Source of the DNA: an uncultured Gammaproteobacteria bacterium
GTDB lineage: Bacteria; Patescibacteriota; Microgenomatia; 2-02-FULL-39-11
Assembly: GCA_964354025.1 (NCBI GenBank)
Contig: CAYGXQ010000002.1
Location: 51,798-112,364 of the forward strand
DNA length: 60,567 nucleotides
Direction: 5' to 3'
Part shown: positions 2,542 to 51,236 of the stretch, one piece after another
Numbering within the stretch: the first letter of the stretch is position 1
Layout: each line of letters opens with the position of its first letter
Made by a program: the position numbers and the translations under genes
The notes under the pieces: model-generated
Told to the model about the DNA's origin: nothing
Database searches by the model: none
What the model saw: only the letters and a program-made list of their open reading frames with translations

Positions 2542-3246
2542 ATGTCCGAAGTCATCCCAGCCATCTTAGAAAAAGATTTCTCCGAAATAGAAAAGAAAAT
2601 CCGTCTGGTTGAGAATTTAGTTTCTTGGGTCCAGATCGACCTGGCTGATGGGACACTGGTTCCCAACACCACTTTTCTTGATCCGACTCTTTTTGCCGGT
2701 ATTATAAAAGGCCTTAAAGACACCTCGAAGGTGTTCCGAAGGGACTCCTTCGAGGTGGAGGAAATAGTAAAGAGTAAGGCGCATAAATTATCTTTTGAAC
2801 TTCACCTGATGGTTAAAGATCCCCTGAAATATATTGAGCCTTTTGCCAAAAGCGGTTTCAAACGTTTTTTTGCCCATGTGGAAGGGAAGAAAGTGGAGGA
2901 ATATATAGAGGACTGCAACCGTTTGGATGTGGAGATCGGTTTGGCCATAGACGGGCCGACTAATTGGCAGGCAGTTCATAAATATCTGAATGATATTGAC
3001 ACGGTTTTAGTCATGGCCATTGATGCCGGTTTCTCGGGAAGGCCTTTTCGGGAAGATACGGTTGAAAAAATCAGGAAAATCCGCGAAATAGATTTGGAAA
3101 TTCCGATTGCTGTTGACGGAGCGATGAATCCGGAAAATGCCGCCAAAGTGGTTGCCGCCGGCGCCACCAGGATAAACTCCAATTCCTACATTTTCAATTC
3201 TCCGGATATCAAAGCGGCGATTGAAAAGTTAAGAAATATAAAATAA
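2542..3246 (+). CDS. rpe: Ribulose-phosphate 3-epimerase
   Basis: Colinear Rpe motifs: IDLADGTLVPNTTF, HLMVKDP, AHVEG, VLVMAIDAGFSGRPF, IAVDGAM. Contains an in-frame insert (GLKDTSKVFRRDSFEVEE) encoded by the 53-nt element at 2711-2763. Confidence 0.85.
   Translation: MSEVIPAILEKDFSEIEKKIRLVENLVSWVQIDLADGTLVPNTTFLDPTLFAGIIKGLKDTSKVFRRDSFEVEEIVKSKAHKLSFELHLMVKDPLKYIEPFAKSGFKRFFAHVEGKKVEEYIEDCNRLDVEIGLAIDGPTNWQAVHKYLNDIDTVLVMAIDAGFSGRPFREDTVEKIRKIREIDLEIPIAVDGAMNPENAAKVVAAGATRINSNSYIFNSPDIKAAIEKLRNIK
2711..2763 (+). repeat. 53-nt palindromic element inserted in frame (copy 1, in rpe)
   Basis: GCCTTAAAGACACCTCGAAGGTGTTCCGAAGGGACTCCTTCGAGGTGGAGGAA is identical over 53/53 nt to 16573-16625 in tal. 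It has an internal perfect 11-bp inverted repeat, CACCTCGAAGG (2721-2731) / CCTTCGAGGTG (2747-2757). Confidence 0.9.
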
Positions 3247-3254
3247 ATTCCCTA

Positions 3255-3323
3255 AACAGGAATAGCGCGGACTAAAGTCCGCTAATCCGTTTCTGTTTGG
3301 AATAGCGCAATTTATTGCGCGCC
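3255..3323. repeat. REP-like family B (GGAATAGCGC + short palindrome), two tandem variants
   Basis: AACAGGAATAGCGCGGACTAAAGTCCGC and GGAATAGCGCAATTTATTGCGCGCC. Matches 8624-8655 (GAACAGGAATAGCGCAATTTATTGCGCGCCTT) and a partial copy at 22141-22163. Confidence 0.75.
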
Positions 3324-3342
3324 TTTGAAATGGGGCAAAAGA

Positions 3343-3390
3343 CTGGGTCTGGTGGCCGTCGCCCTCCTCGGCCTAATGTAGCCGTTAAGG
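3343..3390. repeat. Repeat family C (CTGGGTCT.GT.GCCGTCG..CTCCTCGGCC)
   Basis: CTGGGTCTGGTGGCCGTCGCCCTCCTCGGCCTAATGTAGCCGTTAAGG resembles 9107-9157 (CCTGGGTCTTGTCGCCGTCGTTCTCCTCGGCCTGTCGTGGCTGTTATAGCC). Confidence 0.7.
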
Positions 3391-3405
3391 ATTTGGTAAA
3401 ACTTT

Positions 3406-3478
3406 GTCATCGCGAGTCCCGACGTTACGTCGGGGCGTGGCGATCCCGACGGGATTGCTTCGCTACGCTCGCAATGAC
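3406..3478. repeat. REP-like family A copy
   Basis: GTCATCGCGAG...GGGATTGCTTCGCTACGCTCGCAATGAC. ORF 3404..3715 (+) lying over it is judged spurious. Confidence 0.8.
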
Positions 3479-3508
3479 ATGAGACAACGTTTTGAGATAG
3501 CTTCTATT

Positions 3509-6500
3509 TTATTGCGCGCTTTTTGGATTATTTTTTTTACTTCTGCCGGTATTTTTCCCAATAGAAGTTATGACGGCTGCGCAATAGGTGATAAGAGCTT
3601 CGGTAACAGCGTCCTGATCTCTACCAGAATATTTTCTCAGAAGGTTTGTTGCCATACTGCCTGTTTGATTATCCGTATGAGTTCCTATTCCTATACAGGG
3701 GAAAGATCCCAATAATTCCGCGATGTTTCTTAGTCCATTATGAGCGGAGCCTTCATCTATACCTGATGATGCTTCGATCCTTCCCAATGATAATCTGGCA
3801 TTGTCCCAGACAACTATAGCGGGCGGAAGAGAAGATAGATCACTATTTTGTAATATTGCTCTTCCGCAATAATTTACATCGCAATTATTGATAAGGACAG
3901 TTAATGTTCCTCCGTTTGGAAAAGAGATTAAATAAGTATCCAGGTATTTTGCTGATTTTTTCTCTATTGTCACATTTCCCGATTTTTCAAGAGCTTTAAT
4001 CAACGTTTTCATTAATATGACTGACATGTTATGAGGGGTACCGTCAGCCTCGGGGCCATTTCCCATAGCGATAATACAACGGTTACCATCATCAAGATGG
4101 GGAAGATATTCTGCAATATCATGGGCGATTCTCTCTGCGGCTTCATCAATTGCCTTTTGATGGTCGATGGCAGGTTGTCCATCGTCAGGTTCCAATATGG
4201 GCTGTCTCAATGTTTTTATGACTGGTCTTGAGGGTTTTGCATACTTTCCTAGGGAAACTGACCATGTTTTTGAATCAGGATTAAGTCTTGTTTGTTCGAT
4301 ATGAAGAGCTATTTCCTGAGCTTTTTTCCTGAGAATTTCTTCAGGTAATCTTATACCAAGATTGTCAAAAAGCATATTTTGGATAAACACCCCATCAGGT
4401 TTTTCCGCCGCGACAATTCTTTGGCAGGCCTCCATAATTTCATCGTATAAAAATGGCGACAGTCCAATATTTTCCATCGTGCCTCTATATGTTCTTTCGG
4501 TAATTTTCGTATCTGCAGTTTTGTCTTTTAATAATAAATTCAGGGGACCATGAGGATGTTGCAGTAAATGAATGATGCTTTTGTCGTATTCCTCTAACTC
4601 ATGAGCTAGGATTCTTTCTTCATTTTCTTGCGATGGAGTTAATATTTTACGCTCAAGTCCGTTATAATAAACTAGACCTCTTTGCAACACAATATTCACC
4701 AAATTGTCTTGAGGAATTTTCAACAGTCGTGAAAGTATGATGGTTTCTCTGATCAGTTTCCGGCCGTGTGCCCGGAATCTCAGGGTTTCTTCTTCTATTG
4801 ACAAAATTTTGTCGAAATCACTATTTTGCATGGACATGGAATGGATTATGGCTCTTGTTGCGGTCAGTCTGTCAGTTAGAAGGTCAGTCAATCTATTATG
4901 GTTAGGGTGGCCTGCATTTGATAACCTATTAATTTCCCTATGGATTTCCAGAAAGGATGATGTATCAAAGACAGAGATATTTCTTTTGTGTTTTTGCGAA
5001 AGCAGAGCCATTTCCAGTCTGTCTTTACCGCAGGCTACTTCCCAGACCCCGAGCTGGCCGAATTTTTCTTCCCTGCCTTCTATGCCGTTGATATTGATAA
5101 AATTTGCCAGTTCAATTCTTCTACCATCAGGCATGATATAGAACAGCTCGAAGTTTCTTCCGGTCAGATTACCGCCCAACTGTGGATTAGGCGTGCCGCC
5201 CTGTCTCCAGTTGCACGCCTTTTCAGAAAGGGTGACATTGTCAGGGGATATTCCCCGTTCAGCCAGTATTTTCAGGACGGCGTTTTCCGCAGGATGCACA
5301 ACTGCCCTGATCCTCGAAAAATCGAGTTTTTCCTGTCGGAAAAAGTCCAGTAAAGGATAAATCACTTCCCTTAAACTAATTTGGTCCTTTTCCCTGAGTA
5401 TGAAATATCCCAGCATTTCAAAACAAGCAGCCCTGGTAGGAGTCATACCTTTATCCAGTTCAGCTGCCAATTCTCGGGCATCGTTATCCCGAAGGCACAG
5501 TTGACTGCCTGAACGCAGGACTTCATATGCAGGGAAACTTTCGGATAAAGGTTTGCTCTCCTGGGATTTAGACAGGTATTCGATAAGAAGTTGCTCTATA
5601 TCAGACCTGCCGAGGGACCGGTTGTATTCTTTTTCGTCTTTGGGATAGATGACATTTTTTTCCGCCCTAAAAGGAAAATATTTTTGTTCCATAAACCCTG
5701 CAAATCTGTCTTCAATCTTTTCCGGATGATATTTTTCCTGAGATTTCTCAAATTCCGCAACACTGATGTGTGGAGTTCGAGAATAGCGATCAGTAGCACG
5801 AAGGTATGCCTCCGGCCTAAAAGTTCTTGTAATAGCTGTCGAGGAGTCTGGCCGAAGCTCAATGGGGACAGTATTAAAAAACAGTGCTCCCTGTATGGAT
5901 CTGTCTAAATTGACATCAGGGTTTTGGGAATTCAAAAGTATCAGTTCCCGCAATCCGCATATAATAAACGGATGATTATCGCAAATCCATTTTATTGCCT
6001 CAGCAAGCGGGGTCAATTCTCCGGCAGGTTTATTAACTTTTCCCCAGTATATTAGTTCAATTAAACCTTCTTGTCTTAATTCTCTTATATCTCCCGGGAG
6101 ATTATTATAAAAAAGATAAGTGGTTGAGAGAGAACCGCAAATACAATCTAATATATATTTATTTATGCCAAATTTTTGGTAGTGGTCAGGCAGAGGAATA
6201 GAGTTTATTTTTGCATAAATATCAGGATGATTTTTTTCCAGAAAATCCAGCCAGCAGGATACCGATATGGGCAATGTTTCCTGACTGGTTTCAAATAATA
6301 AGTTTCTATTTTCATAATCACTCCTCTGGGGAGATACTTCTTGATCATAGTGTTGTCCGCTTATAAGCGCAGATATAAAATCCCGGCCAACGCTTTTTCT
6401 TGCCTCTTTTAAACAAACTGAGAATTTTCCGTTACCATCTCTTTTAAGGACAATTTCATTCAACCAGTTTTCCATTACCCTGTATCTGCCCGTAAACACA

Positions 6501-8524
6501 GCAAGAGCTATTTTATCAGCTTGTTGTGTTCCCAATCTTTTCAAAACGGTTTCTCTTAATTTCAGTTTATCTTCTTTAGGCAGATAAAGCGTCGCCGAAG
6601 CCTGTTCCAAGAGCAGGCTGATAAGAAATCCCATATCATCCAACTCTTTTACCAAATGATCTGTATCAGTTAAATCAACCCGGAGATGTCTATAAGGTTT
6701 TTGGCATCTTCGAGTAAAATCCCACGCGTGTTCCATGATTATCTTTACATGGCCATTATGAGTAGCACCAAATTCATGCCTAAAACGGATTGTATCTTCA
6801 GTTAAAACAGTTAAGGGCGCCCGATCTACGGATACTCTTGGGCCGGTATGACCTAACATACGTGCTTTATTCACAAGAATATTTGGCATGGCTGATCCTA
6901 AATCTAATGCCAGTCCTTTTGAGTCGTATCTGTGTTTCAAAGAGAGTAAGAGTTCGTCATGTTCATGCTCTCTTTGGGCGGATGATATCAGATATTTGTG
7001 ATCTAATAGGTGCCTGCCCAGATCACTGAAACGATGACGGTTAAAATCACCATCAAGCATCTCATAGGCACCTTGCGTACTTCTTTCGAAATATCCCTGC
7101 AGCTGGTATGGGGATATGATCCTATCCTTAACACGCATTATATTCATAAGTTCTATGACGAGGTCTGTTCTGTATATTCCTGAGGCCAGGTAGTCCAGAA
7201 AATCCTGCGCGTCATTCCTTGTCACTCCCGCCCAGGCGGTTTTGGGCAAAGTGACTATATTAACCATTTCCTGTATCAGATCGCCGAATCTTTGGATAGT
7301 TGCATCATCTCTAGCAAACTCATATATATTACTACCTGCTGATGAGCTGTATTTAATATCAGTAAGAATATTTTCTACAAAGATATCTACCTGCGGACTG
7401 TGATAGACAAACGGACTTTTCAGTTCTTCAAGAGCTTGTATGGCGCGGGAAACCTGTCCGGCATCAGTGTTGCCTTCAATTATTTCTTCCACAGGCTTGG
7501 CGATTATGGAAGGTAAATCCAGATGATCTAAAACAGTAATAACAGCTTTACTGATTTCCAGAAATACAGGATTTCTAATAGATAGCGCGAATCTATTTTG
7601 GCTTGCCTGTTTATTTAAATGACCATCAAAAGTGACCTTTCCAGCTTCATCAACGCCTGCGTATACATATCTCACATTTCTCATTATCTGTCTCAAACTG
7701 ACGTTTTGATCTTCAAATATACCCTTATGGGCGTCAATTACCGTAAGTGCATCCCTGATCTTAGTTAATTCCTGTTCCTTTATGCCCCATTCTGTTAAGG
7801 TAAAAAAGGGTTCAAACAAATCCCAATTTTTAAGTATGGTATGGGCATCAATAGTTTTAAATGCCCGGTTCCATTGGTCCATGGTCCTTTCTATGGTGTT
7901 TGAGTCTGCTTTAACCACATAATCAGCAGTTTCCTGTCTTTTTCGTATAAGGTCAGGGAGATTTACAACCGGTTTTTCTATATGTTGAACTATTTCAGTA
8001 GTTCTAACAGCCGGAAGTTCTCTCTTTCGTCTCAGTTTCTTTACTTCATACGGTGGAATATTGTTAATGATCGGCTTCTGAATTATGAATGGAAGATTTG
8101 TTGTTTGGGGTTGGTCTGCTCCGTCATGAAATAATTTATCTCTACAATTTATCCTTCTTCTGGAATCAGCGCATTTTTTTTGATATATGTCAGCTTCAAC
8201 TGCAATTTGCTTTTTAATGGCTTGTCCTTGTTCAAGAGCAAAATCTCTCGTGAGATTTATTAAAGCAACAAGACTTGGAACCGGTATCTCTTCCAGGCCG
8301 TCATTCGGCGGATCACCGGGTACAACACCTTCAGTATCAAGAGGGCTAACCTCATTTATTCTACAGGCCTGACGTAATAATTCAATTAATTGCTTTTTTT
8401 CCCTCGGTGTCCATTGATCTGCCTCTTTTTTCATCACCATACCTTCTGGTGTTTCTATCCATGGTGGATCCGGTGAAGCATCATGACCATTTGCTATTCT
8501 TATCGTTTCTGTTATATTTCCCAT
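3509..8524 (-). CDS. Giant multidomain protein (1671 aa from the SD-preceded ATG; 1680 aa from 8551) with a degenerate AlaRS-like core
   Basis: Single uninterrupted ORF. GAGGTG lies 7 nt upstream of the ATG at 8524. Residues ~980-1410 (nt ~4320-5614) are colinear with the alanyl-tRNA synthetase N-terminal half. Matching motifs, giant vs AlaRS: SQLCLR vs SQRCVR; ACFEMLGYF vs TFFEMLGNF; CNWRQGG vs DNFWQMG; ELFYIM vs EIFYD. Also IELANFININ vs IEIWNIVFMQF; ACGKDRLEMALLSQ vs TGMGLERIAAVLQ; SVFDTSSF vs SNYDIDLF; TRAIIHS vs IADHIRS. Also GRKLIRETIILS vs GYVLRRIIRRA; HELEEY vs TEEEQF. The N-terminal ~980 aa and C-terminal ~200 aa are unassigned. Confidence 0.6.
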   Translation of the reverse strand: MGNITETIRIANGHDASPDPPWIETPEGMVMKKEADQWTPREKKQLIELLRQACRINEVSPLDTEGVVPGDPPNDGLEEIPVPSLVALINLTRDFALEQGQAIKKQIAVEADIYQKKCADSRRRINCRDKLFHDGADQPQTTNLPFIIQKPIINNIPPYEVKKLRRKRELPAVRTTEIVQHIEKPVVNLPDLIRKRQETADYVVKADSNTIERTMDQWNRAFKTIDAHTILKNWDLFEPFFTLTEWGIKEQELTKIRDALTVIDAHKGIFEDQNVSLRQIMRNVRYVYAGVDEAGKVTFDGHLNKQASQNRFALSIRNPVFLEISKAVITVLDHLDLPSIIAKPVEEIIEGNTDAGQVSRAIQALEELKSPFVYHSPQVDIFVENILTDIKYSSSAGSNIYEFARDDATIQRFGDLIQEMVNIVTLPKTAWAGVTRNDAQDFLDYLASGIYRTDLVIELMNIMRVKDRIISPYQLQGYFERSTQGAYEMLDGDFNRHRFSDLGRHLLDHKYLISSAQREHEHDELLLSLKHRYDSKGLALDLGSAMPNILVNKARMLGHTGPRVSVDRAPLTVLTEDTIRFRHEFGATHNGHVKIIMEHAWDFTRRCQKPYRHLRVDLTDTDHLVKELDDMGFLISLLLEQASATLYLPKEDKLKLRETVLKRLGTQQADKIALAVFTGRYRVMENWLNEIVLKRDGNGKFSVCLKEARKSVGRDFISALISGQHYDQEVSPQRSDYENRNLLFETSQETLPISVSCWLDFLEKNHPDIYAKINSIPLPDHYQKFGINKYILDCICGSLSTTYLFYNNLPGDIRELRQEGLIELIYWGKVNKPAGELTPLAEAIKWICDNHPFIICGLRELILLNSQNPDVNLDRSIQGALFFNTVPIELRPDSSTAITRTFRPEAYLRATDRYSRTPHISVAEFEKSQEKYHPEKIEDRFAGFMEQKYFPFRAEKNVIYPKDEKEYNRSLGRSDIEQLLIEYLSKSQESKPLSESFPAYEVLRSGSQLCLRDNDARELAAELDKGMTPTRAACFEMLGYFILREKDQISLREVIYPLLDFFRQEKLDFSRIRAVVHPAENAVLKILAERGISPDNVTLSEKACNWRQGGTPNPQLGGNLTGRNFELFYIMPDGRRIELANFININGIEGREEKFGQLGVWEVACGKDRLEMALLSQKHKRNISVFDTSSFLEIHREINRLSNAGHPNHNRLTDLLTDRLTATRAIIHSMSMQNSDFDKILSIEEETLRFRAHGRKLIRETIILSRLLKIPQDNLVNIVLQRGLVYYNGLERKILTPSQENEERILAHELEEYDKSIIHLLQHPHGPLNLLLKDKTADTKITERTYRGTMENIGLSPFLYDEIMEACQRIVAAEKPDGVFIQNMLFDNLGIRLPEEILRKKAQEIALHIEQTRLNPDSKTWSVSLGKYAKPSRPVIKTLRQPILEPDDGQPAIDHQKAIDEAAERIAHDIAEYLPHLDDGNRCIIAMGNGPEADGTPHNMSVILMKTLIKALEKSGNVTIEKKSAKYLDTYLISFPNGGTLTVLINNCDVNYCGRAILQNSDLSSLPPAIVVWDNARLSLGRIEASSGIDEGSAHNGLRNIAELLGSFPCIGIGTHTDNQTGSMATNLLRKYSGRDQDAVTEALITYCAAVITSIGKNTGRSKKNNPKSAQ

Positions 8525-8623
8525 AAAAATTTCACCTCGATTTTGAGGCATTTTGATAGATATTTATATATTTTGTGGTATTGTAGCAGAATATCTTATA
8601 GAGTTCAAAAATAGATCAGGCTT

Positions 8624-8655
8624 GAACAGGAATAGCGCAATTTATTGCGCGCCTT
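8624..8655. repeat. REP-like family B copy
   Basis: GAACAGGAATAGCGCAATTTATTGCGCGCCTT, with palindrome GCGCAAT/ATTGCGC. Confidence 0.75.
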
Positions 8656-8675
8656 ATCAAAGGGTATTAAGCCGC

Positions 8676-8706
8676 TTGACATCGCTAATTTTATTTGTGA
8701 TAGAAT
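8676..8706 (+). promoter_or_regulatory. Sigma70-like promoter for the small-membrane-protein operon
   Basis: TTGACA (8676-8681), 19-nt spacer, TAGAAT (8701-8706). The ATG at 8715 is only 8 nt downstream, so the mRNA is probably leaderless. Confidence 0.45.
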
Positions 8707-8714
8707 AATTATTG

Positions 8715-8915
8715 ATGACAGAATTAAGAGGAGAACCCAAAGTATATTCAGAATTTTTTACTAACGTGGCAGTAGCTTGGTTTTCAGCCGGAGTAATTAC
8801 TCCATTATTTATAAAGCCTACTGATCTATTTGGGTTTTTACCAAGCGCTATCGCCATAGTCGCTTCCTGGGCGTTTCTAAATATTGCTTCTGCGTTTGCA
8901 AAGGAGGTAAAATGA
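8715..8915 (+). CDS. Small 2-TM membrane protein, family member 1
   Basis: SEFFTNVAVAWFSAGVITPLF aligns with AEFLGNFALAWITFGLISPVF (18057..18254) and SEFTANLGLIFFATGVTPLF (58099..58308). The paralogs support the plus strand over antisense ORF 8657..8992. Confidence 0.65.
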   Translation: MTELRGEPKVYSEFFTNVAVAWFSAGVITPLFIKPTDLFGFLPSAIAIVASWAFLNIASAFAKEVK

Positions 8916-9004
8916 TCACTGAGAATATCTGGTTGGCTTACGCCATTGGGATTATTATGAGTAGTATCGTAATTTTTTATGCTTATTTTCACCTGAGAAA
9001 ATGA
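8912..9004 (+). CDS. 30-aa single-TM micropeptide
   Basis: Not in the ORF track (<60 aa). ATGA overlap with the upstream stop; AGGAGG lies 6 nt upstream. Sequence: MITENIWLAYAIGIIMSSIVIFYAYFHLRK. A positional equivalent is at 18259..18363. Confidence 0.5.
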   Translation: MITENIWLAYAIGIIMSSIVIFYAYFHLRK

Positions 9005-9011
9005 GGAATTT

Positions 9012-9095
9012 ATGAATATAAATACTATTGTTTATATCCTGGCTTTTGTTTTGGGCGCGGTTGCTTTCTACATTGCTTTCTTTAAAATAAAGTAA
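9012..9095 (+). CDS. 27-aa single-TM micropeptide (MNIN family)
   Basis: MNINTIVYILAFVLGAVAFYIAFFKIK, with a GAGGA SD-like box upstream. Paralogs: MNINTVNTILMIIAFILLAGLGYISFAKDRKK (18373..18471) and MNLNWLQTFYIVGALVLLAIAIIAYPTLKSRSKK (57998..58102). Confidence 0.55.
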   Translation: MNINTIVYILAFVLGAVAFYIAFFKIK

Positions 9096-9106
9096 AGATA
9101 TTCTTT

Positions 9107-9157
9107 CCTGGGTCTTGTCGCCGTCGTTCTCCTCGGCCTGTCGTGGCTGTTATAGCC
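9107..9157. repeat. Repeat family C copy
   Basis: See 3343-3390. Confidence 0.7.
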
Positions 9158-9254
9158 TCTTATACCACTTTCTATTCTATATCCTTTTCTTGAAAAAAAT
9201 TAGATAATAATTATAATCATCTCAAAACAAAAGAGTATAATATAACTTACATTT

Positions 9255-10406
9255 ATGTTGCAAGAAAATAGTCCCCCAACAGCTACACCGTCACTGGCGG
9301 ATGCCGAAACTCAACAATCTGAACCCCAACCATTGGAAATACTTGGTAGAGCCGTACGGGAGAGATATATTGTCCAGACGGCTGGGACATTGGCATTTTG
9401 CAGGTCATTAAAAGAGACAGACAGTATAATTTTTAGTACAGCATATTCCGGCGATGCAGGTGAAATACTTGATAGAATGGTGAGTAATATTAATGGAACA
9501 AAAGGATATGCCAGGGTTATTGATCTTCATAGCCAGAAGATTGGTTTTAAAGGTGTATTAGAGGATATTGATAAAGCATGTCAGGCAGTTTCAGTAGCAG
9601 GAAGTGCTAGACCTGCCGATGATTTTGCGGCAGAACCAGATAATACACCTACAACCAGACCAGTATTAGTTATCAAGGGGTTTGCAGATATCCCAAATAT
9701 TATTACTACCAGTCCAATGCTGAAAAAAAGGCTCGTAACCTTTCTACGATTATTTATGCAAAAATACAGTGATTATCCTCCTGAACAACGACCGCTCATT
9801 ATTACTGATGCCTCAAAAGATGAAATGATATCGCTGAATGATGTTCTTGAGGTTAATATAACAGACCAACCTTATTATCGAATTCTTTTTAATGCGCAAA
9901 AAGTGCCTTTCGACCGGCTGGAAAAGATTCCCGAAGCGGTAGCTCTTGTGGCAGGAAGATTATTAACTATCGCTGATGCCATATTCACAGCGGATAAGCC
10001 TGCCGTATATCGTTTAATGTTGCCTTATGATTATGGACTAATTGCCGATCTTACGATGGAAGAGCTGATAAACCGGAAGCTATTGCATATACCGCCAGGT
10101 GTAGAAAGCCAGATTCAGTTGATTAATGCCCACGAGGCATTTCTGATGGTAGAGGATTTAAGAAATAATCACACCAAAATACCCGTGCATACAGGACAGC
10201 ATGATATTACTATTCTTGGATTGAGTGTGGATACCAATTATCCTGTCTTACGCAATTTTGCCGGGACTGGCGGCAATATTATTGCCATAACATCCGAGGA
10301 TAGGAATGTAGATTTTAGTTATGGACGATATGAATATACCCTTGATAAACCTCCTGTTTTTTGCGGTTCAGGACCATCAAATCAAGCTCGTCACATACAG
10401 GAATAA
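9255..10406 (+). CDS. Hypothetical cytoplasmic protein (383 aa)
   Basis: Long ORF with no TM and no motif I can name with confidence. There is a weak AAA-like colinearity (RPVLVIKGFADI, PLIITDASKDEMI) without a Walker A motif. TATAAT at 9236-9241, no SD. Confidence 0.5.
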   Translation: MLQENSPPTATPSLADAETQQSEPQPLEILGRAVRERYIVQTAGTLAFCRSLKETDSIIFSTAYSGDAGEILDRMVSNINGTKGYARVIDLHSQKIGFKGVLEDIDKACQAVSVAGSARPADDFAAEPDNTPTTRPVLVIKGFADIPNIITTSPMLKKRLVTFLRLFMQKYSDYPPEQRPLIITDASKDEMISLNDVLEVNITDQPYYRILFNAQKVPFDRLEKIPEAVALVAGRLLTIADAIFTADKPAVYRLMLPYDYGLIADLTMEELINRKLLHIPPGVESQIQLINAHEAFLMVEDLRNNHTKIPVHTGQHDITILGLSVDTNYPVLRNFAGTGGNIIAITSEDRNVDFSYGRYEYTLDKPPVFCGSGPSNQARHIQE

Positions 10407-10546
10407 CTCCTGATTTCTCCGAAATTTTTCTCTTTAATAAGATATCTTAAGTTATATTAAATCATATTAGTTTATATATTATATCAGTACGAAACTATGC
10501 AGAGTAAAGCTATTTTTTTCCTTATGATGAAGCGTATAATTATGTT

Positions 10547-11071
10547 ATGTCCAAGCCCGGTTACGAGTATCTTCTGACCTATCAAAACTCAGTCGAAATT
10601 TACGATCTGACGGTGGAATTTGTCGGGAAATTCCTGCCGGGAAGAGAAAATCTTAGAACTCGGGAGCAGATGGTTCAAGCCGCCCGCTCATCCAAACAAT
10701 GTATAGTTGAGGGATACTTGCAGAAAAGTACGAAGGGTTACATCAAGCTTTTGGGAGTGACGAGGGGATCTTGGGAAGAATTACTGGAGGATTACCGTGA
10801 TTTTGCCAGAACAAGAGGTTTTCAGATAAGGGACAAGTGGGACACAAGGGGAAAAAGGGACAAAATGAGAAAATATCTACTTCCTCTCGACCCTCTTTAC
10901 CCTCTTAACCCCTTTATCCCTGTTAACTATCTGGCCAATCTTATCCGTCGGACCAACTATTTACTGGATAGACAGATGGCTTCTTTGGAGAAAAAGTTTA
11001 TCTCAGAGGGCGGTTATACAGAAAAACTCTTCAAAAAGCGTTTGGATTTCCGGAGAAATACGGTGAAATAA
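10547..11071 (+). CDS. Four-helix-bundle protein (23S rRNA IVS-protein-like family) with a low-complexity insert
   Basis: YLLTYQNSVEIYDLTVEFVGKFLP...QMVQAARSSKQCIVEGY fits the family pattern. A GGG-word arm (10829-10865) and a CCC-word arm (10891-10924) form an imperfect inverted repeat encoding RDKWDTRGKRDKMRKYLLPLDPLYPLNPFIPVN. Confidence 0.65.
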   Translation: MSKPGYEYLLTYQNSVEIYDLTVEFVGKFLPGRENLRTREQMVQAARSSKQCIVEGYLQKSTKGYIKLLGVTRGSWEELLEDYRDFARTRGFQIRDKWDTRGKRDKMRKYLLPLDPLYPLNPFIPVNYLANLIRRTNYLLDRQMASLEKKFISEGGYTEKLFKKRLDFRRNTVK

Positions 11072-11086
11072 TCATATGGGTAGAGC

Positions 11087-11917
11087 TTATCCTAAATATT
11101 TCTTCATGATCTCCCGGTAATTTTCACAGAAATCCGAGACGAACCGGCTGTCCGGCAGAAAATTCAGGAGGTCATATTTAAGTTTTTGCGGAGTAGCGGT
11201 TTTTTCGATCTGCGCCGAAAGCCTGTTTTTCAGCTCTTTTTCATTTCCCACACCGGTGATTTTTTTCAGACACTTCCAGTTCGGCGTCACTCCTTTATCA
11301 AAGTACCAGAAAAGGTCGTAGAAGTCCCGTCCCTTTATATCAATCTCATTTTTCTTCCCCTTAAACCACAACCGATATAAAAACGCATGGATTTTACCGG
11401 CCATCAGAGTGGGGAGGTCATAATGACGGACGATGAAATTAAATCCCATTCGGGAAACGGGAGTAAGTGACATCCCGGCAAAAGGTAAAATATCATTTTC
11501 CACCTCAATTTTTACATATAATTTATCACTTTCACCGGCTTCGGCCATGGACAACTTTTTTAAGATAGGGAATTTCAAATATATTCTTTTTGTTGATTGC
11601 ATTTTGGTTTCAAGAAGGGCGACATATCTCTCTTTTATTTCCTTTTCCAGATAGGCGTTGAGTTCTTTCAGGGAAAACTTTTCCCGCTTTCGGGTATCGA
11701 TATCGAAATCCAAATCTTCAGAAAGTCTGGGCAGTCCGAAACAGATTCGAAGGCATGATCCTCCCTTAAAAATCATATTTTTGTATTCTTTGCTGTTGTA
11801 AATATTTTCCAGTACGGCGTATTGGATATGCTCTTTCAGGTAGTTTAAGATGACAGGTTTAGCGATACCCATTTTTTTCTTTTCGGCAACGATCTGTTTC
11901 AGAATGTTTTTATACAT
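11087..11917 (-). CDS. AbiEii/DUF1814-type nucleotidyltransferase toxin
   Basis: FKGGSCLRICFGLPRLSEDLDFD motif. 8-nt overlap with the upstream partner gene. Confidence 0.8.
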   Translation of the reverse strand: MYKNILKQIVAEKKKMGIAKPVILNYLKEHIQYAVLENIYNSKEYKNMIFKGGSCLRICFGLPRLSEDLDFDIDTRKREKFSLKELNAYLEKEIKERYVALLETKMQSTKRIYLKFPILKKLSMAEAGESDKLYVKIEVENDILPFAGMSLTPVSRMGFNFIVRHYDLPTLMAGKIHAFLYRLWFKGKKNEIDIKGRDFYDLFWYFDKGVTPNWKCLKKITGVGNEKELKNRLSAQIEKTATPQKLKYDLLNFLPDSRFVSDFCENYREIMKKYLG

Positions 11918-12542
11918 AGTATTTTGATTGTATCAGATTATATACCTCGTTCACTTTTCTGCTTCCGGATAATTTAACATATTTATACATCGCCTTAAAT
12001 TCCGGTCTTTTCATGTTTTCCCAATTTATACGAAGCTCCTCAATTGTTTTTCCGTTTACCGGAGTATTTTTCAGGAAACGTAAATAAAGAAAATCAAAAA
12101 GAGCCTTAATTTTTCCGGCGCTAAAAACAGGATACTGATCATAGTTTTTAGCCGTAAAACCGGTAAATAGAGGAGGGGTGACGGAATAATAATAAAAAGC
12201 CCCCAATGCGTTTTTGAATATTTTGGTTTTTCTGGTGGAGACGCTGGTGATATTTGTTACCCCCTCAGTCAGCAGGCCGAATTTGCTCATGACATATTCA
12301 CCGGACAGATATGACGGTTCATAGATTTTATTCGCGATATATTCCGGAAATTCTTTATTCCCGGCTTCTTTTTCCCTTCTTTCACGGGTAATATATAGCC
12401 CGCTCTTCAGCAAAATCACTTCCCCCTTTTTTATCCAATAGGAAAGATTGTAATTTAACGAGTCTTCCCTCGGTTCAATTTGCCTGAGAGTTTCTTTGGT
12501 AAAGAGAATGACGTTATACTTCTTCAAATCCTGCAGTTTCAT
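11910..12542 (-). CDS. AbiEi-like antitoxin/transcriptional regulator
   Basis: Operon partner of the AbiEii-like gene. The N-terminal region (YWIKKGEVILLKSGLYI) resembles AbiEi wHTH proteins. Confidence 0.6.
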   Translation of the reverse strand: MKLQDLKKYNVILFTKETLRQIEPREDSLNYNLSYWIKKGEVILLKSGLYITRERREKEAGNKEFPEYIANKIYEPSYLSGEYVMSKFGLLTEGVTNITSVSTRKTKIFKNALGAFYYYSVTPPLFTGFTAKNYDQYPVFSAGKIKALFDFLYLRFLKNTPVNGKTIEELRINWENMKRPEFKAMYKYVKLSGSRKVNEVYNLIQSKYYV

Positions 12543-12673
12543 AACTATGGTTGTTTCCTAATTAATAGCAATATTCTAATAAATAAGAAACACTTTGTCA
12601 AGATGGATCCTCGCAATGACATGTTACTTGGAAACTATGGATAGGTACAAGTATATGTTTGCGACTGACTCTC

Positions 12674-15600
12674 TTATTTCTTTTTAGTATATTTCATGTA
12701 TTTATAAGTCGCGTAGCTTGAGTAGGGAGTTTTGCCGCCCAGCCAGCTTGACCACTCGCCTGGGGCGCAGCCGTTGCCGGCGCGCATTTTAAAATAATAA
12801 GTTTTTCCCGCAACAAGCTTTTTTATATCGATGGACCAGACGTGTCCATTCCCCGGATTGGCGGCAAATGACATGGCATATCTCTCGTCTCCCGGTTTGA
12901 AGCCGTAGATTATAAAATACGTATTCATATTTTCCTTGACGGTGGTGTAATAAAGAGTAGCTGAATTCTTTTTCATATTTATCTGGAATAAATCAGGATG
13001 GCCGAGAGGCTTGGGCTGTTGACACTTGGTATTGTCAGTGCTTTCGGATGAGCCGGAAGAATAAGTGTTGCTGGTGGAGTCAAGAGAGGCAAAATAAGAT
13101 AGATGGTAGGTATGAATTTTCGTATCAGTAGAATTTGAAATAAAACATTCTCCGGGGAAAGTTGGGGCGGTCGGATTGTCATATGTTCCACTGCAGGCAT
13201 TGGTAATTCTCACCCACGAAGAAGAGCCGACCGGTTTATACCCGATAGCGCCTGATGCGCCTTTGATGATGATGCTTATGGCTTTGTCAAATAAGAGTTC
13301 GACGCTGGTAGATCCTAAAGATGTGACATGGTCGCCTAGGGTATATCCGGACGGGATAGAATCGGTTGAAGGAGCGGTATAGATGACCGGAGGTTGAAAT
13401 TTACCGTCCCAGCCGCTGGGACCCATAATAACCGTTCCGTCCGGGATAGAGACAGTTACCTCCGGAGCCGAATTTAAAGTGGAAACAGTGACGCCGGTGC
13501 CGGTGATGCCTGAATCGAGCCTGACGACTTTATTGACGGTCATACTGGTGTCGCCGATAGTTATTGCGCCTGAAAGGTTCTGGGCAGTCAGATCATTATA
13601 CGTATAGTTTCCTAAAGCCATTAAGCCTCCGCCGATGTAGACGTTGCCGCCTGAGGCGGTACTCAGACCCGCCGAGGTGTCCAGATTGTTTGTTTTGTTG
13701 AGGGATATAGCCGTGATGCTGTTGGGCATTTGGACTTGGCCGGCGCTTGAAGAAAGCAATGTTGAGTCGGTGTAACTGCCGTTGGAAAGCACGGTCCGGT
13801 TAACATCAGTATAATACGGGTCATAGTCAACGTAATCGCTGACTGAGTCGCCGTCGGTATTGGGTCCTGTGGCGCTATTCCACCAGTTATTTTCGGCGTT
13901 CAGAGTCGCGGGTGAAGGATCATAGGCGACCACCACCGCTTTGTCGTAAGGAGCTGAGCCGGTGTCGTTGCCGGCAAAATTATTATTGTTGACCGTAATC
14001 CCGCCCAGAGTGATCCGGTCTGCCGTCAGCGTGGTGACGAAGGCCAGGCCGAAATCGTTACTGACAAAACCGTTATTGGAGACGGTCAAGCTGGTCAGTT
14101 TGGTTACCCCGTCGTTTGATTTTGGTATGATCAGGAGGCCGCCCCAATGCGAAGTGCTGGTATCGCTGGGAGTGAATTTGTTGCTGGTGACCGTGACGGC
14201 CGAAGTGTCATTGCCTCCATCGACCAGATAAAGTCTGACACCCGACCCGAAAGTATTACCCGAAATAGCAGCTGTTTGGAGTGAGGCAAATTTTATAGCG
14301 TAATGGACATCGCCGGTGGCGGTAAAAGTGTTATTGGTCAGGCTAAGATTACTCGTCACCCCATCGGTGGCAGTCGGATTAAAATTAAGGGCCACGTCAA
14401 GCCCGGTAGAATCATAGTTTAAAGTATTATTATTTATCGTCAGATGATCATAAGCACCTTCAAGAGAAATACCGGCAGTTGGTTCGCCGGTGGAATTGAT
14501 GATGCAATTTTTTATCGTCAAATAATTGGTGCCGGTGGTGATCTGTACCGGCCAGTCACCGGCTGCCGCTCCTGATGAAGGAGGGGAGAGGGTCATGCTG
14601 TCCAATATCACCTGATTGTCAGCCGTGCCGGCATAATTGACGATGACCGTTGCCCCGCCGGTGGCCGCTCTTTGGATGGTAGTATTGGCGGCGCCATTGC
14701 CTTTGATGGTTACCGGTTTCGTGACGGTAAAATTATCAGCATAAGTTCCTGAAGCGACGTTGATGGTACCGTTATCGGCTACCAATGTAAGGGCGTCGCT
14801 GACGAGCGCGCCGGCGGCATCGGTCTGGTTGACGTTGACGGTGGCCGCGGTGATGCCGGTGGTGCCGGCCACCAAAACAGCGCCGTTGGTCAAAGTAAAA
14901 CTAGTTGCCGTTGGACTACCGGTTCCGACCAGCTGGGCGCTTTTATTGATAGTGACGTCTTCAGCATATGTTCCGGCTCCGGCATTTATCGTCCCGCCGG
15001 CGGCAACCAGCGTCAAAGCGTCGGCTATTTTTGCTCCGGTTGCGCCAACCTGATCGACATTGATGGTTGCCGCGGTGATACCGGTGGTTCCGGAAACCAA
15101 AGTGGCACCGTTGGTCAAAGTAAAACTGGTCGTTGTCGGATCTCCGGTTCCGACCAGTTTAATATTTTTATTGATGGTGATGTCTTCGCCGTACGCGCCG
15201 GCAGCGATATTAATCGTTCCTTCAGCCGAGACCAAAGTCAGCGCGTCAGCGATTTTGGCGCCGGCCCCCCCGGTTTGGTCGACGTTAACCGTCGCCGAGC
15301 TGATACCCGTTGTCCCGGCCACCAGAGTCGCTGTGTTGGTGAGAGTAAAACTGGTGGCCGTCGGACTGCCGGTTCCGACCAGTTTAATATTTACATTGAT
15401 AGTGACGTCTTCGGCGTATTCACCGGCGGCGACATTGACTATATCGTCAGCGATAGCCACCGTCATTGCTTTGGTCATCGACAGATAAGCGCAATCCGGA
15501 GGCGAAATAGGAGGGGCATCGACCAGCCCGCTGCAGGTGATATCGTCTCCGTTCGTCCGTACATACATAGTTGTGGCGGCATGGGCTGACTCAGGCAAAA

Positions 15601-15724
15601 AAAAGAATAACAGGAGGAACATGGCGGTCAGATAGCCCAACTGAAGAAATGATTTCCGGTGAACGGATAATTGAAGAAAAAAAATGATCAGAAATAAAAA
15701 CACCAGGCAGCTGAGATAGTACAT
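12674..15724 (-). CDS. Large secreted/surface beta-helix repeat protein with C-terminal FN3-like domain
   Basis: The ORF extends to 15931, but the ATG at 15724 (MYYLSCLVFLFLIIFF) or 15622 (MFLLLFFFLPESAHA) gives a signal or anchor sequence. Contains three 75-aa tandem repeats, G/T/N-rich beta-helix-like sequence, and a C-terminus GKTYYFKMRAGNGCAPGEWSSW. Confidence 0.7.
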   Translation of the reverse strand: MYYLSCLVFLFLIIFFLQLSVHRKSFLQLGYLTAMFLLLFFFLPESAHAATTMYVRTNGDDITCSGLVDAPPISPPDCAYLSMTKAMTVAIADDIVNVAAGEYAEDVTINVNIKLVGTGSPTATSFTLTNTATLVAGTTGISSATVNVDQTGGAGAKIADALTLVSAEGTINIAAGAYGEDITINKNIKLVGTGDPTTTSFTLTNGATLVSGTTGITAATINVDQVGATGAKIADALTLVAAGGTINAGAGTYAEDVTINKSAQLVGTGSPTATSFTLTNGAVLVAGTTGITAATVNVNQTDAAGALVSDALTLVADNGTINVASGTYADNFTVTKPVTIKGNGAANTTIQRAATGGATVIVNYAGTADNQVILDSMTLSPPSSGAAAGDWPVQITTGTNYLTIKNCIINSTGEPTAGISLEGAYDHLTINNNTLNYDSTGLDVALNFNPTATDGVTSNLSLTNNTFTATGDVHYAIKFASLQTAAISGNTFGSGVRLYLVDGGNDTSAVTVTSNKFTPSDTSTSHWGGLLIIPKSNDGVTKLTSLTVSNNGFVSNDFGLAFVTTLTADRITLGGITVNNNNFAGNDTGSAPYDKAVVVAYDPSPATLNAENNWWNSATGPNTDGDSVSDYVDYDPYYTDVNRTVLSNGSYTDSTLLSSSAGQVQMPNSITAISLNKTNNLDTSAGLSTASGGNVYIGGGLMALGNYTYNDLTAQNLSGAITIGDTSMTVNKVVRLDSGITGTGVTVSTLNSAPEVTVSIPDGTVIMGPSGWDGKFQPPVIYTAPSTDSIPSGYTLGDHVTSLGSTSVELLFDKAISIIIKGASGAIGYKPVGSSSWVRITNACSGTYDNPTAPTFPGECFISNSTDTKIHTYHLSYFASLDSTSNTYSSGSSESTDNTKCQQPKPLGHPDLFQINMKKNSATLYYTTVKENMNTYFIIYGFKPGDERYAMSFAANPGNGHVWSIDIKKLVAGKTYYFKMRAGNGCAPGEWSSWLGGKTPYSSYATYKYMKYTKKK
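14726..15400 (-). repeat. Three tandem 225-nt coding repeats
   Basis: IN.NIKLVGTG.PT.TSFTLTN.ATLV.GTTGI.AAT.NVDQ...GAKIADALTLV...GTIN.AAG.Y.ED.T repeated three times. Confidence 0.85.
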
Positions 15725-15818
15725 TTTATATCTAAAATTATCGTATAGTATGTTTAACCATGCTGTCAAGTGTATTCGCTGCTGACTTTCAAATAAATAT
15801 TTGTTAAAATCATCCTGT

Positions 15819-16769
15819 ATGGTCAAGTCCGCTTTTTCTTCCAAAATCTTTCTCGACGGCGGGGTGTCGGAAGAAACAGCCGAAGCTAAAAAGCTACTAG
15901 GCTTTCTCGACGGCCAGACGACCAACCCCACATTGATCGCGAAGAATTTACTAAATAGAGGGGTATCAGGTATCAGGTATCAGGTATCAGGTATAGATAA
16001 GAAGAAAAAAATACTTAATACTAAATACTTAATACCTAATACCGAGAAAGCGGCTCTTGAGGAGTATAAAAGAATTGTAAGACAAATGAGTAAGGTTATC
16101 CTTCACGGATCCGTTTCTATCCAGGTTTTTGCCGATCAGAAGACCAAAACCGCCGAGATGATCAAACAAGCGAGAGTTAGGAGAAAATGGATTCCCAATT
16201 CTTCAATCAAAATTCCCTGCGTGGCCGAAGGCCTGAAAGCCGGAGAAATACTTTGTAAAGAAATGCCCCTCAATTTTACCCTCGTATTTTCCCAAAGCCA
16301 GGCGGCGGCTGTATATGAGGCAACAAAGGGAGCCAAATATCCGGTTTTCGTTTCACCATTTGTCGGCCGGCTCGATGACGGAGGAGAGAAGGGGATGGAC
16401 GTGATCGCCAATATATTAAGAATGTATGAAAAGAGCGATCATCATATTGAAGTGCTTACGGCCAGTGTACGGAATTTAGGCCATATTTTCCGTGCTTTTG
16501 AACTTAAATCAAACATTATTACTATTCCCTTCAAAATCCTGAAAGAATGGGCAAGTCTTGGATTCCCAACAAGCCTTAAAGACACCTCGAAGGTGTTCCG
16601 AAGGGACTCCTTCGAGGTGGAGGAATCAGCAAAGACTGATCTATTACCGATTTATTATGATTCAAGCGTCAGGCTCGGCCAACCCTGGCAGTCTTACGAC
16701 CTTCACCACGACCTGACTGACAAAGGCGTCACCTCTTTCTGGACCGACTGGATGGGATTGTTTTCATAA
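15819..16769 (+). CDS. tal: Transaldolase / fructose-6-phosphate aldolase family (short type)
   Basis: KIFLDGG...LDGQTTNPTLIAKN, SIKIPCVAEGLKAGE, NFTLVFSQSQAAA, VSPFVGRLDDGGEKG. The ATG at 15819 is preferred over the TTG at 15801. Carries two in-frame repeat-derived inserts. Confidence 0.85.
   Translation: MVKSAFSSKIFLDGGVSEETAEAKKLLGFLDGQTTNPTLIAKNLLNRGVSGIRYQVSGIDKKKKILNTKYLIPNTEKAALEEYKRIVRQMSKVILHGSVSIQVFADQKTKTAEMIKQARVRRKWIPNSSIKIPCVAEGLKAGEILCKEMPLNFTLVFSQSQAAAVYEATKGAKYPVFVSPFVGRLDDGGEKGMDVIANILRMYEKSDHHIEVLTASVRNLGHIFRAFELKSNIITIPFKILKEWASLGFPTSLKDTSKVFRRDSFEVEESAKTDLLPIYYDSSVRLGQPWQSYDLHHDLTDKGVTSFWTDWMGLFS
15959..16043 (+). repeat. Heptamer-periodic imperfect hairpin inside tal
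   Basis: (GGTATCA)x4 arm, A-rich loop, then the ATACTTA ATACTAA ATACTTA ATACCTA ATACC arm (about 25/33 complementary). Encodes GVSGIRYQVSGIDKKKKILNTKYLIPNT right after the conserved TTNPTLIAKN motif. Confidence 0.8.
16573..16625 (+). repeat. 53-nt palindromic element inserted in frame (copy 2, in tal)
   Basis: Identical to 2711-2763 and read in the same frame (LKDTSKVFRRDSFEVEE). Confidence 0.9.
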
Positions 16770-22156: not shown

Positions 22157-22366
22157 TTACTCCTTAGTCTGCAATCCCAGAAGCCACATGACGGCTTCTT
22201 TTTTATACCGGCGGTCGCCTCGTGAGTTGATGCGGATGGCCGGCAGTTTGCCTCTTTTGCCCCATCTTTTTATGGTGAGCGGTGAGACGCGCAGAATTTT
22301 TGCCACTTCCCTTACGGTTAAAAGGTCCGGCCAGTCTTGTCCTAGAGACATATTATTAAGTATCAA
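22157..22366 (-). CDS. Excisionase-family/MerR-like HTH DNA-binding protein
   Basis: LLTVREVAKILRVSPLTIKRWGKRGKLPAIRINSRGDRRY. Confidence 0.7.
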   Translation of the reverse strand: MILNNMSLGQDWPDLLTVREVAKILRVSPLTIKRWGKRGKLPAIRINSRGDRRYKKEAVMWLLGLQTKE

Positions 22367-22563
22367 GTATTAAGTATCAGGTATTAAGTATATAACTTAA
22401 TCACAAAATATTTCTACTTGAGCCCTCCAATTGTTTGCGGACAGAAAAATTTATAAGGAGGCAGATTATCTAATCAATTTGATATGTAATGTAACATAAC
22501 CCATTTTATGTTGTCAATAGACATCAAAGAAGGGCAGGTAGTTTGAAATAGAATGATGTATAT

Positions 22564-26527: not shown

Positions 26528-26911
26528 TTACTTCAACTCTACCGTCGCTCCGGCCGTAGTCAATTTTGTCTTGGCTTCCTCTGCCGTTTTTTTGTTGACT
26601 CCGGTTAAGACTTCTTTGGGAGCTGATTCCACCAATGTTTTGGCCTCCTGAAGACCGAGAGTCTGTACCAGTTCACGGACGGCTTTGATGACGCCGATTT
26701 TGTTGGTGCCGGCATTACTCAGCACCACATTGAAAGTCGTTTGTTCGGGAGCGGCTTCTCCTGCCGGTGCGCCTCCTGCTGGAGCTGCGACCGCCACTGG
26801 GGCTGCTGAAACACCGAATTTCTCTTCCAAAGCTTTGACGAGGTCTGCCAGTTCAAGGACTGACATTTCCTCAACTGATTTTAAGATTTCTTCTTTACTT
26901 AATTTTGCCAT
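26528..26911 (-). CDS. rplL: Ribosomal protein L7/L12
   Basis: [19 protein letters not shown] hinge, then [31 protein letters not shown]. Confidence 0.97.
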
Positions 26912-26936
26912 AAACTTCTTTCACCCCCGTTCGTTA

Positions 26937-27458: not shown

Positions 27459-27560
27459 ATATAAAATAAAACCTCGGCATTGCCGAGGCAACTAAACGCT
27501 AGACGCTATTCTCTAGACGCTAATCATTTCCTCGGCAAGACTTATTTTTGTGCTTGTTGT
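27459..27560 (-). promoter_or_regulatory. Possible rplJ leader structure
   Basis: Nested CCTCGGCA/TGCCGAGG inverted repeats (27473-27490 and 27530-27540) lie immediately upstream of rplJ. L10 leaders are known autoregulatory RNAs, but the identity here is not demonstrable by eye. Confidence 0.3.
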
Positions 27561-29311: not shown

Positions 29312-29349
29312 ACCACAACCATACACTAGGGTACACTAGGGGTACACTA

Positions 29350-30400: not shown

Positions 30401-30411
30401 ATATTTCTTTT

Positions 30412-30467
30412 GTCATTGCGATCCCGAGCCTGTCGAGGGAGAAGCAATCCCGTCCGAGATTGCCACG
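30412..30467. repeat. REP-like family A copy (reverse orientation, truncated)
   Basis: GTCATTGCGATCCCGAGCCTGTCGAGGGAGAAGCAATCCCGTCCGAGATTGCCACG matches the reverse complement of 1349-1427. Confidence 0.8.
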
Positions 30468-39556: not shown

Positions 39557-39578
39557 TAACGGTTCCCTAACGTCGTCT

Positions 39579-51234: not shown

Positions 51235-51236
51235 AA

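Follow-up and report, generated by a model that had tools for sequence, protein, structure and literature searches.

Rickettsia palindromic elements (RPEs) are palindromic repeats of about 100-150 bp that lie in frame in unrelated housekeeping genes, where they specify a conserved peptide some tens of residues long (Ogata et al., 2000, as cited in PMC10969869). Repetitive extragenic palindromes (REPs) are imperfect palindromes of 20-40 bp with a GTAG or CGTC tag at one end, mostly extragenic (PMC3733652), intragenic cases being known from Opitutus terrae and, as RPE-4 and RPE-6, from R. conorii (Di Nocera et al., 2013, PMC3733652); the same source describes the 'TIRYT' arrangement, in which a gene resembling that of a REP-associated tyrosine transposase (RAYT) is flanked by long inverted repeats (PMC3733652). 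In this work, we characterized two identical 53-nt palindromic stretches carried in frame by the unrelated sugar-metabolism genes rpe and tal in a 60,567-nt stretch of contig CAYGXQ010000002.1 (hereafter the window, meaning all of the DNA analysed). With a probability of roughly 0.65, we interpret them as copies of a short (about 35-68 nt), GC-rich hairpin repeat belonging to a family endemic to Microgenomates, non-autonomous in the manner of REPs and RPEs, and surviving in permissive loops of its host proteins. Judging from the homologues and genomes compared, the element is a secondary insertion, dispersed across many unrelated genes and genomes and found mostly in open reading frames (ORFs) with the frame kept, and its palindromy is maintained via compensatory changes.

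The features on which the argument depends are the following.

2542..3246, + strand: rpe, ribulose-phosphate 3-epimerase, 234 aa (Pfam Ribul_P_3_epim), with the insert between helix 49-57 and strand 84-90 of the TIM barrel.
2706..2773, + strand: element copy 1, about 68 nt, in rpe, with the identical core at 2711-2763, covering Rpe residues ~57-74 (GLKDTSKVFRRDSFEVEE); covariance model score 78.9 bits, E 4e-15.
2721..2757, + strand: hairpin of copy 1, a perfect 11-bp stem extended to 17 bp with one mismatch.
15819..16769, + strand: tal, transaldolase family, 316 aa from the ATG at 15819 (Pfam TAL_FSA), with the element 47 residues before the C-terminus.
15962..16042, + strand: a second, unrelated in-frame repeat in tal, consisting of the inverted heptamer arrays (GGTATCA)x4.7 and (AATACTT)x4.7, about 20 extra residues.
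16568..16635, + strand: element copy 2, about 68 nt, in tal, with the identical core at 16573-16625, covering Tal residues ~252-269; covariance model score 80.7 bits, E 1.5e-15.
16583..16619, + strand: the same hairpin in copy 2.

A first-pass annotation, made from the sequence alone, had claimed that the rpe and tal stretches are identical over 53 nt, that each holds a perfect 11-bp inverted repeat, and that both are read in the same frame in unrelated genes. All three claims were borne out: the cores match at 53 of 53 positions, and no match of any kind was obtained in 100 dinucleotide shuffles; the inverted repeat CACCTCGAAGG / CCTTCGAGGTG is present in both copies with a 15-nt spacer; and the two copies lie on the + strand in the same reading frame, encoding (G/S)LKDTSKVFRRDSFEVEE. 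Conversely, the size assigned to the unit had to be revised, as ungapped similarity between the copies reaches 68 nt (93% identity), so that the shared unit is about 66-68 nt rather than 53 nt, and Rpe and Tal gain a net 26 aa and 12 aa, respectively, instead of the 18 aa encoded by the identical stretch. When folded as RNA, the core forms a 17-bp hairpin with one mismatch and a GAA apical loop, with a minimum free energy of -32 to -33 kcal/mol in 81 nt (z = -5.9 and -4.5 for the two copies against shuffles) and a GC content of 0.59, compared with about 0.42 for the window. A covariance model of the family recovered only these two copies in the 60.5-kb window. Rfam gave zero matches at the gathering threshold across the window, and zero at E<=1 over 2600-2900; no phage match was found for the element, and the viral contigs searched yielded one unrelated match and none for the subfamily to which the window copies belong.

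For the wider family, one genome per species was scanned with the exact-stem pattern CACCTCGAAGG-N9-21-CCTTCGAGGTG; below, L-numbers denote loci from other genomes and metagenomes, and P-numbers homologous proteins. The scan returned 97 copies in 91 loci with unrelated flanks, mainly from Candidatus Daviesbacteria and also from Gottesman-, Curtiss- and Levybacteria, other Microgenomates, and metagenome-assembled genomes (MAGs) named 'uncultured Gammaproteobacteria'. The host genes in the latter are 60-76% identical to Daviesbacteria orthologues and carry the element at the same insertion sites, and we therefore take that label as a placeholder; every informative match to the family falls in genomes of the Microgenomates type within the Candidate Phyla Radiation (CPR). 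Palindromes matched in Vicinamibacterales, Dehalococcoidia, Streptomyces, Clostridium, Bacteroidales and further groups differ in loop and context, and were treated as unrelated. Five to seven exact copies per MAG occurred among the loci fetched, and further diverged copies were found with the covariance model. Members share the hairpin foot CACCT/AGGTG, whereas hairpin length varies, 34, 35, 36, 37, 38, 40 and 41 nt all occurring, and the loops fall into classes (12 nt, with TGGGCTTTGACT and its reverse complement; 13-15 nt, as in the window; and 18-19 nt), each present in both orientations. In the Daviesbacteria family, the two orientations number 34 and 22, and there is no GGAGGA tail.

A long open frame spans 88 of the 99 copies, and in the CPR loci 79 of 85 copies (93%) lie in ORFs, in comparison with 83% of random 34-nt windows drawn from the same loci. 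The element is free of stops in five of its six frames, and the single combination of orientation and phase that contains a stop is never used. A fixed design in which hairpin plus 2 nt makes a multiple of three was considered and ruled out, given that hairpins of 35, 36, 38 and 41 nt are also in frame; the frame would thus be kept by selection rather than by design. The encoded peptides vary with orientation and phase, and include (S/D/N)TSKVGFDSFEV, HLEGVKAHLRG, STSKESKPTFEV and, more rarely, PRRSQSPPSR. Pfam named ten hosts: arginyl-tRNA synthetase (ArgRS), a WecG-family and a family-2 glycosyltransferase, 3-dehydroquinate (DHQ) synthase, pseudouridine synthase, MurB, HMG-CoA reductase, CCA-adding enzyme, RF-1 and RadA. 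Relative to orthologues in other loci, hairpins of 34-40 nt add a net 8-13 aa, and net gains across the family run from 8 to 26 aa. The first-pass suggestion of a dispersed palindromic repeat holds, some 100 additional copies being spread over dozens of unrelated genes in related genomes, nearly all of them in frame. One ArgRS (L097, metagenome contig Ga0194125_10048638) apparently contains two or three family elements, with AKDTWKVTLDGSFQVEE followed downstream by KTPGRWP...LLPGGG and SLFEVE.

Copies closest to those of the window were sought in metagenomes with the pattern TAAAGACACCT-N20-34-AGGTGGAGGA, which itself demands the conserved termini of this subfamily, and 24 loci with about 17 independent true copies were obtained. 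Beyond the required ends, these share a left flank RRGCSN, the apical part GGTGGCCGAAGGACTCC and, often, a downstream AAAGAC; in the window copies, the core is flanked on either side by AAAGAC (AAAGAG in the rpe copy), and the same applies to roughly half of the subfamily. Mid-stem sequences occur as fully compensated alleles, namely CGA/TCG, TCC/GGA, GGA/TCC, CGG/CCG and GAA/TTC. In the subfamily alignment, pairing holds in 93% of cells, and double changes occur at 8 of the 15 pairs; the covariation score was reached by none of 500 shuffles, and slid controls collapse. Independent imperfect pairs, whether G-U or A-C, are few. The stem allele TCCAGG was found at unrelated sites, in the Rpe of P0012 (L092) and in an unrelated gene of L025, which suggests that subfamilies may have spread separately. 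Regarding context, twelve intragenic copies are in sense orientation at about nine independent sites and one is antisense (L109), while three intergenic copies (L110, L108/114 and L102/104) place GGAGGA 3-13 nt before an ATG.

Compared with the described systems, the family resembles RPEs in being a multi-copy hairpin repeat that is found in frame in unrelated genes, read through, at predicted permissive positions, in a small reduced genome. It differs from them in size (hairpins of 34-41 nt and elements of 35-68 nt with a net gain of 8-26 aa, as opposed to about 100-150 bp), in its use of both orientations and several frames, from which no single conserved peptide results, in its compensatory mid-stem alleles, and in its host lineage, CPR Microgenomates instead of Rickettsia. 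The likeness to RPEs proposed in the first-pass annotation thus stands for behaviour and fails for length and conserved peptide; it is best taken as an analogy rather than membership, the family appearing set apart from RPEs by description. With REPs and REPINs, the family shares the class of 20-40 bp palindromes, into which its 34-41-nt hairpins fit, dispersal in both orientations, and a short asymmetric tag beside the hairpin foot, and a Y1 transposase gene of the window with long inverted repeats resembles the 'TIRYT' arrangement. Unlike those repeats, it carries A-T-C/T and no GTAG or CGTC tag, numbers tens of copies rather than hundreds per genome (two in 60.5 kb), is 93% intragenic where REPs are mostly extragenic and downstream of genes, and no Y1 gene flanked by family hairpins was found in the window, L054 or L011. 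The element is, then, neither an RPE nor a classical REP, RPEs being closest in behaviour and REPs in size and shape. It is also unlike a miniature inverted-repeat transposable element, in that a single hairpin makes up the entire element, no consistent duplication accompanies it and no parent insertion sequence was seen. Short GC-rich hairpins that invade coding sequence in AT-rich compact genomes are represented by the GC clusters and double-hairpin elements of fungal mitochondria and by the 'byp' elements of Magnusiomyces. Byps are skipped by translational bypassing, so that the frame need not be kept; conversely, its retention through most copies of the present element leads us to expect read-through, and the hosts are bacterial, not organellar. 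DNA uptake signals (USS/DUS) have non-hairpin cores of 9-12 nt, occur about once per kb, lie in genes in preferred frames and are shared across related species; the present element differs in its density and in having the stem as its conserved feature.

Relatives of both Rpe and Tal carry the names Candidatus Gottesmanbacteria or Microgenomates, which places the window in an ultra-small CPR bacterium of that group. Among 101 Rpe homologues, length variation is confined to one spot, between DPxPF and ELHxMV, where 73 have a short 9-aa linker, i.e., no insert, and in 27 the spot is filled by 17-51 aa, with eight or more kinds of sequence represented; the insert kind of the window is restricted to the window protein and P0012. 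The site is empty in P0003 (76% identical, 208 aa), and in P0002 (81% identical) it holds two other small hairpins, ATCCTGAAC..GTTTCAGGAT and ATGCCGGA..TCCGGCAT. These comparisons bear out the claim that the Rpe stretch was secondarily inserted. Most homologues lack the peptide, whose presence at the same place in distant orthologues would point to ancestral sequence, and the only related element was found in P0012 (66% identical), at the same site but with three consecutive compensatory pairs relative to the window; we read it as a probable second arrival at a hot spot and not as ancestry. The AlphaFold model of Rpe (predicted local distance difference test, pLDDT, 90; predicted TM-score, pTM, 0.87) has low confidence only at residues ~58-83, it superimposes on solved ribulose-phosphate 3-epimerases with TM 0.82-0.88, and alignments to their PDB sequences break at the insert. 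In TIM barrels, a loop that leads into a strand generally faces away from the active site. The modelled insert loop leads into strand 3, and would accordingly lie on the barrel face opposite the active site.

Several further observations concern the Rpe hot spot and its surroundings. The two small hairpins of P0002 (L093:10099-10320) encode HPELVSGS and MPDQVRHD, and other Rpe homologues carry inserts such as GIPDQVRDD, SPNSPSY..GLGGV, QTRFVTSHKPGLDEL or TGDASEGS, as well as VIASEAKQS tails at the C-terminus; with such varied fillings, several repeat families have this hot spot in common. In addition, genes for 23S_rRNA_IVP / Avd-like four-helix bundles recur near rpe in relatives (L093:9568-9936 and L094:2260-2631), the window copy being at 10547-11071.

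In Tal, the insertion near the C-terminus was likewise corroborated: 56 of 71 homologues lack the insert, with a segment of 42 aa where the window protein has 54, as does the closest relative, P0122 (70% identical). Relative to P0122, 12 residues (TSKVFRRDSFEV) have been added and the next seven replaced, and the event appears not to have been a clean insertion. The AlphaFold model of Tal (pLDDT 86) has low confidence only at 49-70 and at 262-271, the latter within the element; the former corresponds to the roughly 20 residues derived from the heptamer arrays, which are absent from the closest homologue. For both proteins, the models fit floppy surface loops in otherwise confidently predicted barrels, and are consistent with the first-pass guess that the Rpe insert is a surface loop.

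The sites occupied by these hairpins appear to be dynamic. Orthologous sites that fall outside the scan pattern still hold hairpins with other stem alleles or loops (L042, L057, L085 and L025), loops are flipped at identical position and phase in L038/L069, L055/L091 and L051/L089, and in L056 the element has collapsed to a remnant through a 27-nt deletion between CACCTC direct repeats. The MurB site, for its part, is occupied in six species (L013/17/25/31/50/75). Because the scan demanded exact stems, perfect stem conservation across species is partly a matter of ascertainment. Heptamer arrays fill, in two Daviesbacteria genomes (L071:552-596 and L062:3845-3889, both on the - strand), the HMG-CoA reductase loop that holds the hairpin in other species.

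How the element is copied is a separate question, for which we regard a Y1/HUH enzyme of the RAYT or IS200 type acting in trans as the most likely but unproven route; template switching or gene conversion is possible, especially for the patch-like event in Tal. When copies are read on the strand with AGTCAAAGCCCA in the loop, most have A-T-C/T immediately ahead of the foot, irrespective of reading phase, and such an asymmetric motif beside the hairpin foot would fit an enzyme that recognizes single-stranded hairpins. This flank belongs to the 12-nt-loop family, the flanks of the window copies being TAAAGA / GAGGAA. The window contains a gene for a 220-aa Y1/HUH transposase at 38845-39507 (Pfam PF01797, E 5e-10), whose best NCBIfam match is the REP-associated tyrosine transposase at 65 bits, below the model cut-off of 80, and which is bracketed by 54-nt inverted repeats (38784-39558) starting TAGGGGACGGTCCTTTGAT and unrelated to the element. 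A third copy of this inverted-repeat end is found at 29348, preceded by three tandem TACACTAGGGG units. As a partner of the element, the window Y1 gene is unsupported, in view of its unrelated flanking repeats and of homologues in the Daviesbacteria loci L054 and L011 that lack flanking hairpins. AAAGAC was also considered as a target-site duplication and ruled out, since the two motifs lie 53 nt apart, which is not a multiple of 3, and are missing in many copies.

If the element is a selfish repeat, non-autonomous like REPs and RPEs, its new copies would land at random or at weakly preferred sites, and the survivors would be those that keep the frame and lie in permissive loops. Such filtering by frame and loop would generate hot spots, where one loop holds different repeats in different species, and translation of the insert would yield a short peptide, hydrophilic, disordered and tolerated by the enzyme. 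The rpe and tal copies would be identical through recent copying, one from the other or both from a common master, presumably by a hairpin-recognizing single-strand enzyme acting in trans, e.g., a Y1/HUH transposase. The very recent spread that the first-pass annotation deduced from this identity remains compatible with such copying, although gene conversion can also produce identity. Several observations weigh against this interpretation. The Y1 gene of the window is flanked by other inverted repeats (TAGGGGACGG...), which leaves the enzyme without a link to the element, and near its homologues in L054 and L011 hairpins occur 2-7 kb away with no flanking copies; no target-site duplication or clean boundary was definable across the copies; the nearly invariant YxY is lost at the Tal site of the window, which speaks of patch replacement rather than simple insertion; and translation of the insert is something that we infer from frame conservation alone. 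Furthermore, exact 11-bp stems common to several candidate phyla-level groups, together with the slight enrichment in ORFs, exceed what a pure parasite needs, and plain DNA parasitism predicts no strand bias, whereas the subfamily has about nine independent sense sites to one antisense.

These last points would be accommodated if the hairpin were a selected cis-acting signal, either in RNA (ribosome pausing or restart, or message stability) or in DNA (a binding or processing site for a conserved host protein), with its presence in enzymes being regulated or useful and the peptide a by-product, an explanation that we consider quite improbable. The stable stem is followed by GAGGTGGAGGA, which is Shine-Dalgarno-like, the CACCTC of the 5' arm resembles an anti-Shine-Dalgarno sequence, and GGAGGA precedes a start codon by 3-13 nt in the three intergenic copies; however, three such copies among about 17 are close to the number expected from non-coding space alone, and the Daviesbacteria family is found in both orientations (34 to 22) without that tail. 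Selection on a signal could also account for the strong covariation that preserves the stem and for the same stems recurring across Davies-, Gottesman-, Curtiss- and Levybacteria. Quasi-palindrome correction by template switching is, nevertheless, an established process, and such switching during replication can keep palindromes perfect without selection, while the conserved termini of the subfamily were imposed by the search pattern. As for the occupation of orthologous sites in up to six species (MurB), the enrichment in ORFs (93% vs 83%) and the sense-strand bias, which are what a functional signal might display, they have to be set against the majority of Rpe and Tal orthologues that do without the element, against hot spots holding quite different repeats in different species, and against the existence of collapsed remnants.

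Spread without any transposase, by gene conversion or template switching through short homologies such as AAAGAC, would turn the rpe/tal identity into a case of concerted evolution. Despite being unlikely in our view, this explanation finds a footing in the AAAGAC/AAAGAG motifs that flank both window cores and about half of the subfamily, in the patch-like Tal event, where about 7 codons were replaced for a net gain of just 12 aa, in the different stem alleles or flipped loops seen at exactly one orthologous position (L038/L069, L055/L091 and L076/L085), and in the L056 deletion, which indicates that slippage acts on the elements. It leaves unexplained, however, the first arrival at dozens of non-homologous sites; a conversion tract of 35-70 nt would be about the shortest that homologous recombination can handle, and the conserved asymmetric A-T-C/T flank better suits the recognition site of an enzyme. 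We give very little credence to an origin of the shared stretch as a protein motif, whether ancestral or convergent, or as an artefact of assembly. Although the P0012 Rpe has a related peptide in the same place, most orthologues have no insert, and the repeat is read in both orientations and three phases as unrelated peptides (TSKVGFDSFEV, HLEGVKAHLRG, TSKESKPTFEV and PRRSQSPPSR), which defines the family at the nucleotide level; rpe and tal are intact on both sides of the repeat, which argues against a chimeric join, and related copies are present in many independent assemblies. A more ambitious extension of the selfish-repeat interpretation, which we put forward only speculatively, is that of a gene-adapted, REPIN-like system kept across Microgenomates by a dedicated hairpin-recognizing enzyme, with the constant foot CACCT/AGGTG, an asymmetric tag and an exchangeable 3-bp mid-stem 'allele'; in genomes nearly devoid of non-coding DNA, such a system would persist by targeting to, or retention in, surface loops of essential enzymes, and may act as a translational pause/restart signal or as a source of new loops.

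Other features of the window are recorded here independently of the element. Tandem arrays of 7-nt units are located at 15962-16042, 1019-1140, 2456-2491, 22354-22391, 52406-52448, 54475-54596 and 55278-55336; they are often paired in inverted orientation, with the potential to form long AT-rich hairpins, and one is in frame in tal while others are upstream of rpe and at gene ends. Another repeat family, with TGTCATTGCGA / TCGCAATGACA, is present at 1371-1427 and 30411-30467, and also at 1335-1361 and 12608-12634; the former pair comprises 57 nt with 93% complementarity, and is intergenic, just downstream of ORFs on the - strand. The usual nusG-L11-L1-L10-L12 cluster is split by about 23 kb (26528-27491 and 50356-52516), and within the split lie an AbiEii toxin gene (37481), AAA_14/DUF4143 ATPases (34257 and 49062), a PIN gene (47651), the Y1 transposase, and two M20/M28 peptidase paralogues (39711 and 45467). 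Outside it, at 11087 and 18517, are another AbiEii gene and a third paralogue of the peptidases, respectively. Beside the Y1 transposase lies a duplicate of the 3' part of the ribosomal protein L1 gene (50334-50781 and 38350-38788, 84-86% identity), and in the L1 ORF (292 aa) the Pfam L1 match is limited to residues 169-285. Two long ORFs on the - strand complete this inventory: that at 3509-8551 (1680 aa), of which only the C-terminal 190 residues match a family (peptidyl-tRNA hydrolase), and that at 12674-15931 (1085 aa), which matches nothing in Pfam and contains 225-nt tandem repeats in three copies (14808-15482).

To our knowledge, in-frame colonization of essential genes by palindromic repeats is textbook material only for Rickettsia, and our literature searches retrieved no report of such elements in CPR or Patescibacteria. 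The present family, previously undescribed, would extend the same phenomenon to a major branch of the CPR, throughout which the elements are much smaller. The genomes of these bacteria are about 1 Mb, with little non-coding space, and the elements are in no way depleted from coding sequence. They would account for some of the unexplained differences in length, and some of the 'extra loops', among CPR housekeeping proteins, and annotators and structure predictors should be aware that such loops may be repeat-derived. The elements may also be usable as strain-typing markers, and they constitute a natural experiment that shows where proteins can accommodate 10-25 additional residues. Discovery of a partner enzyme would extend the host-element relationship of the REP-RAYT type to a new phylum and to coding DNA.

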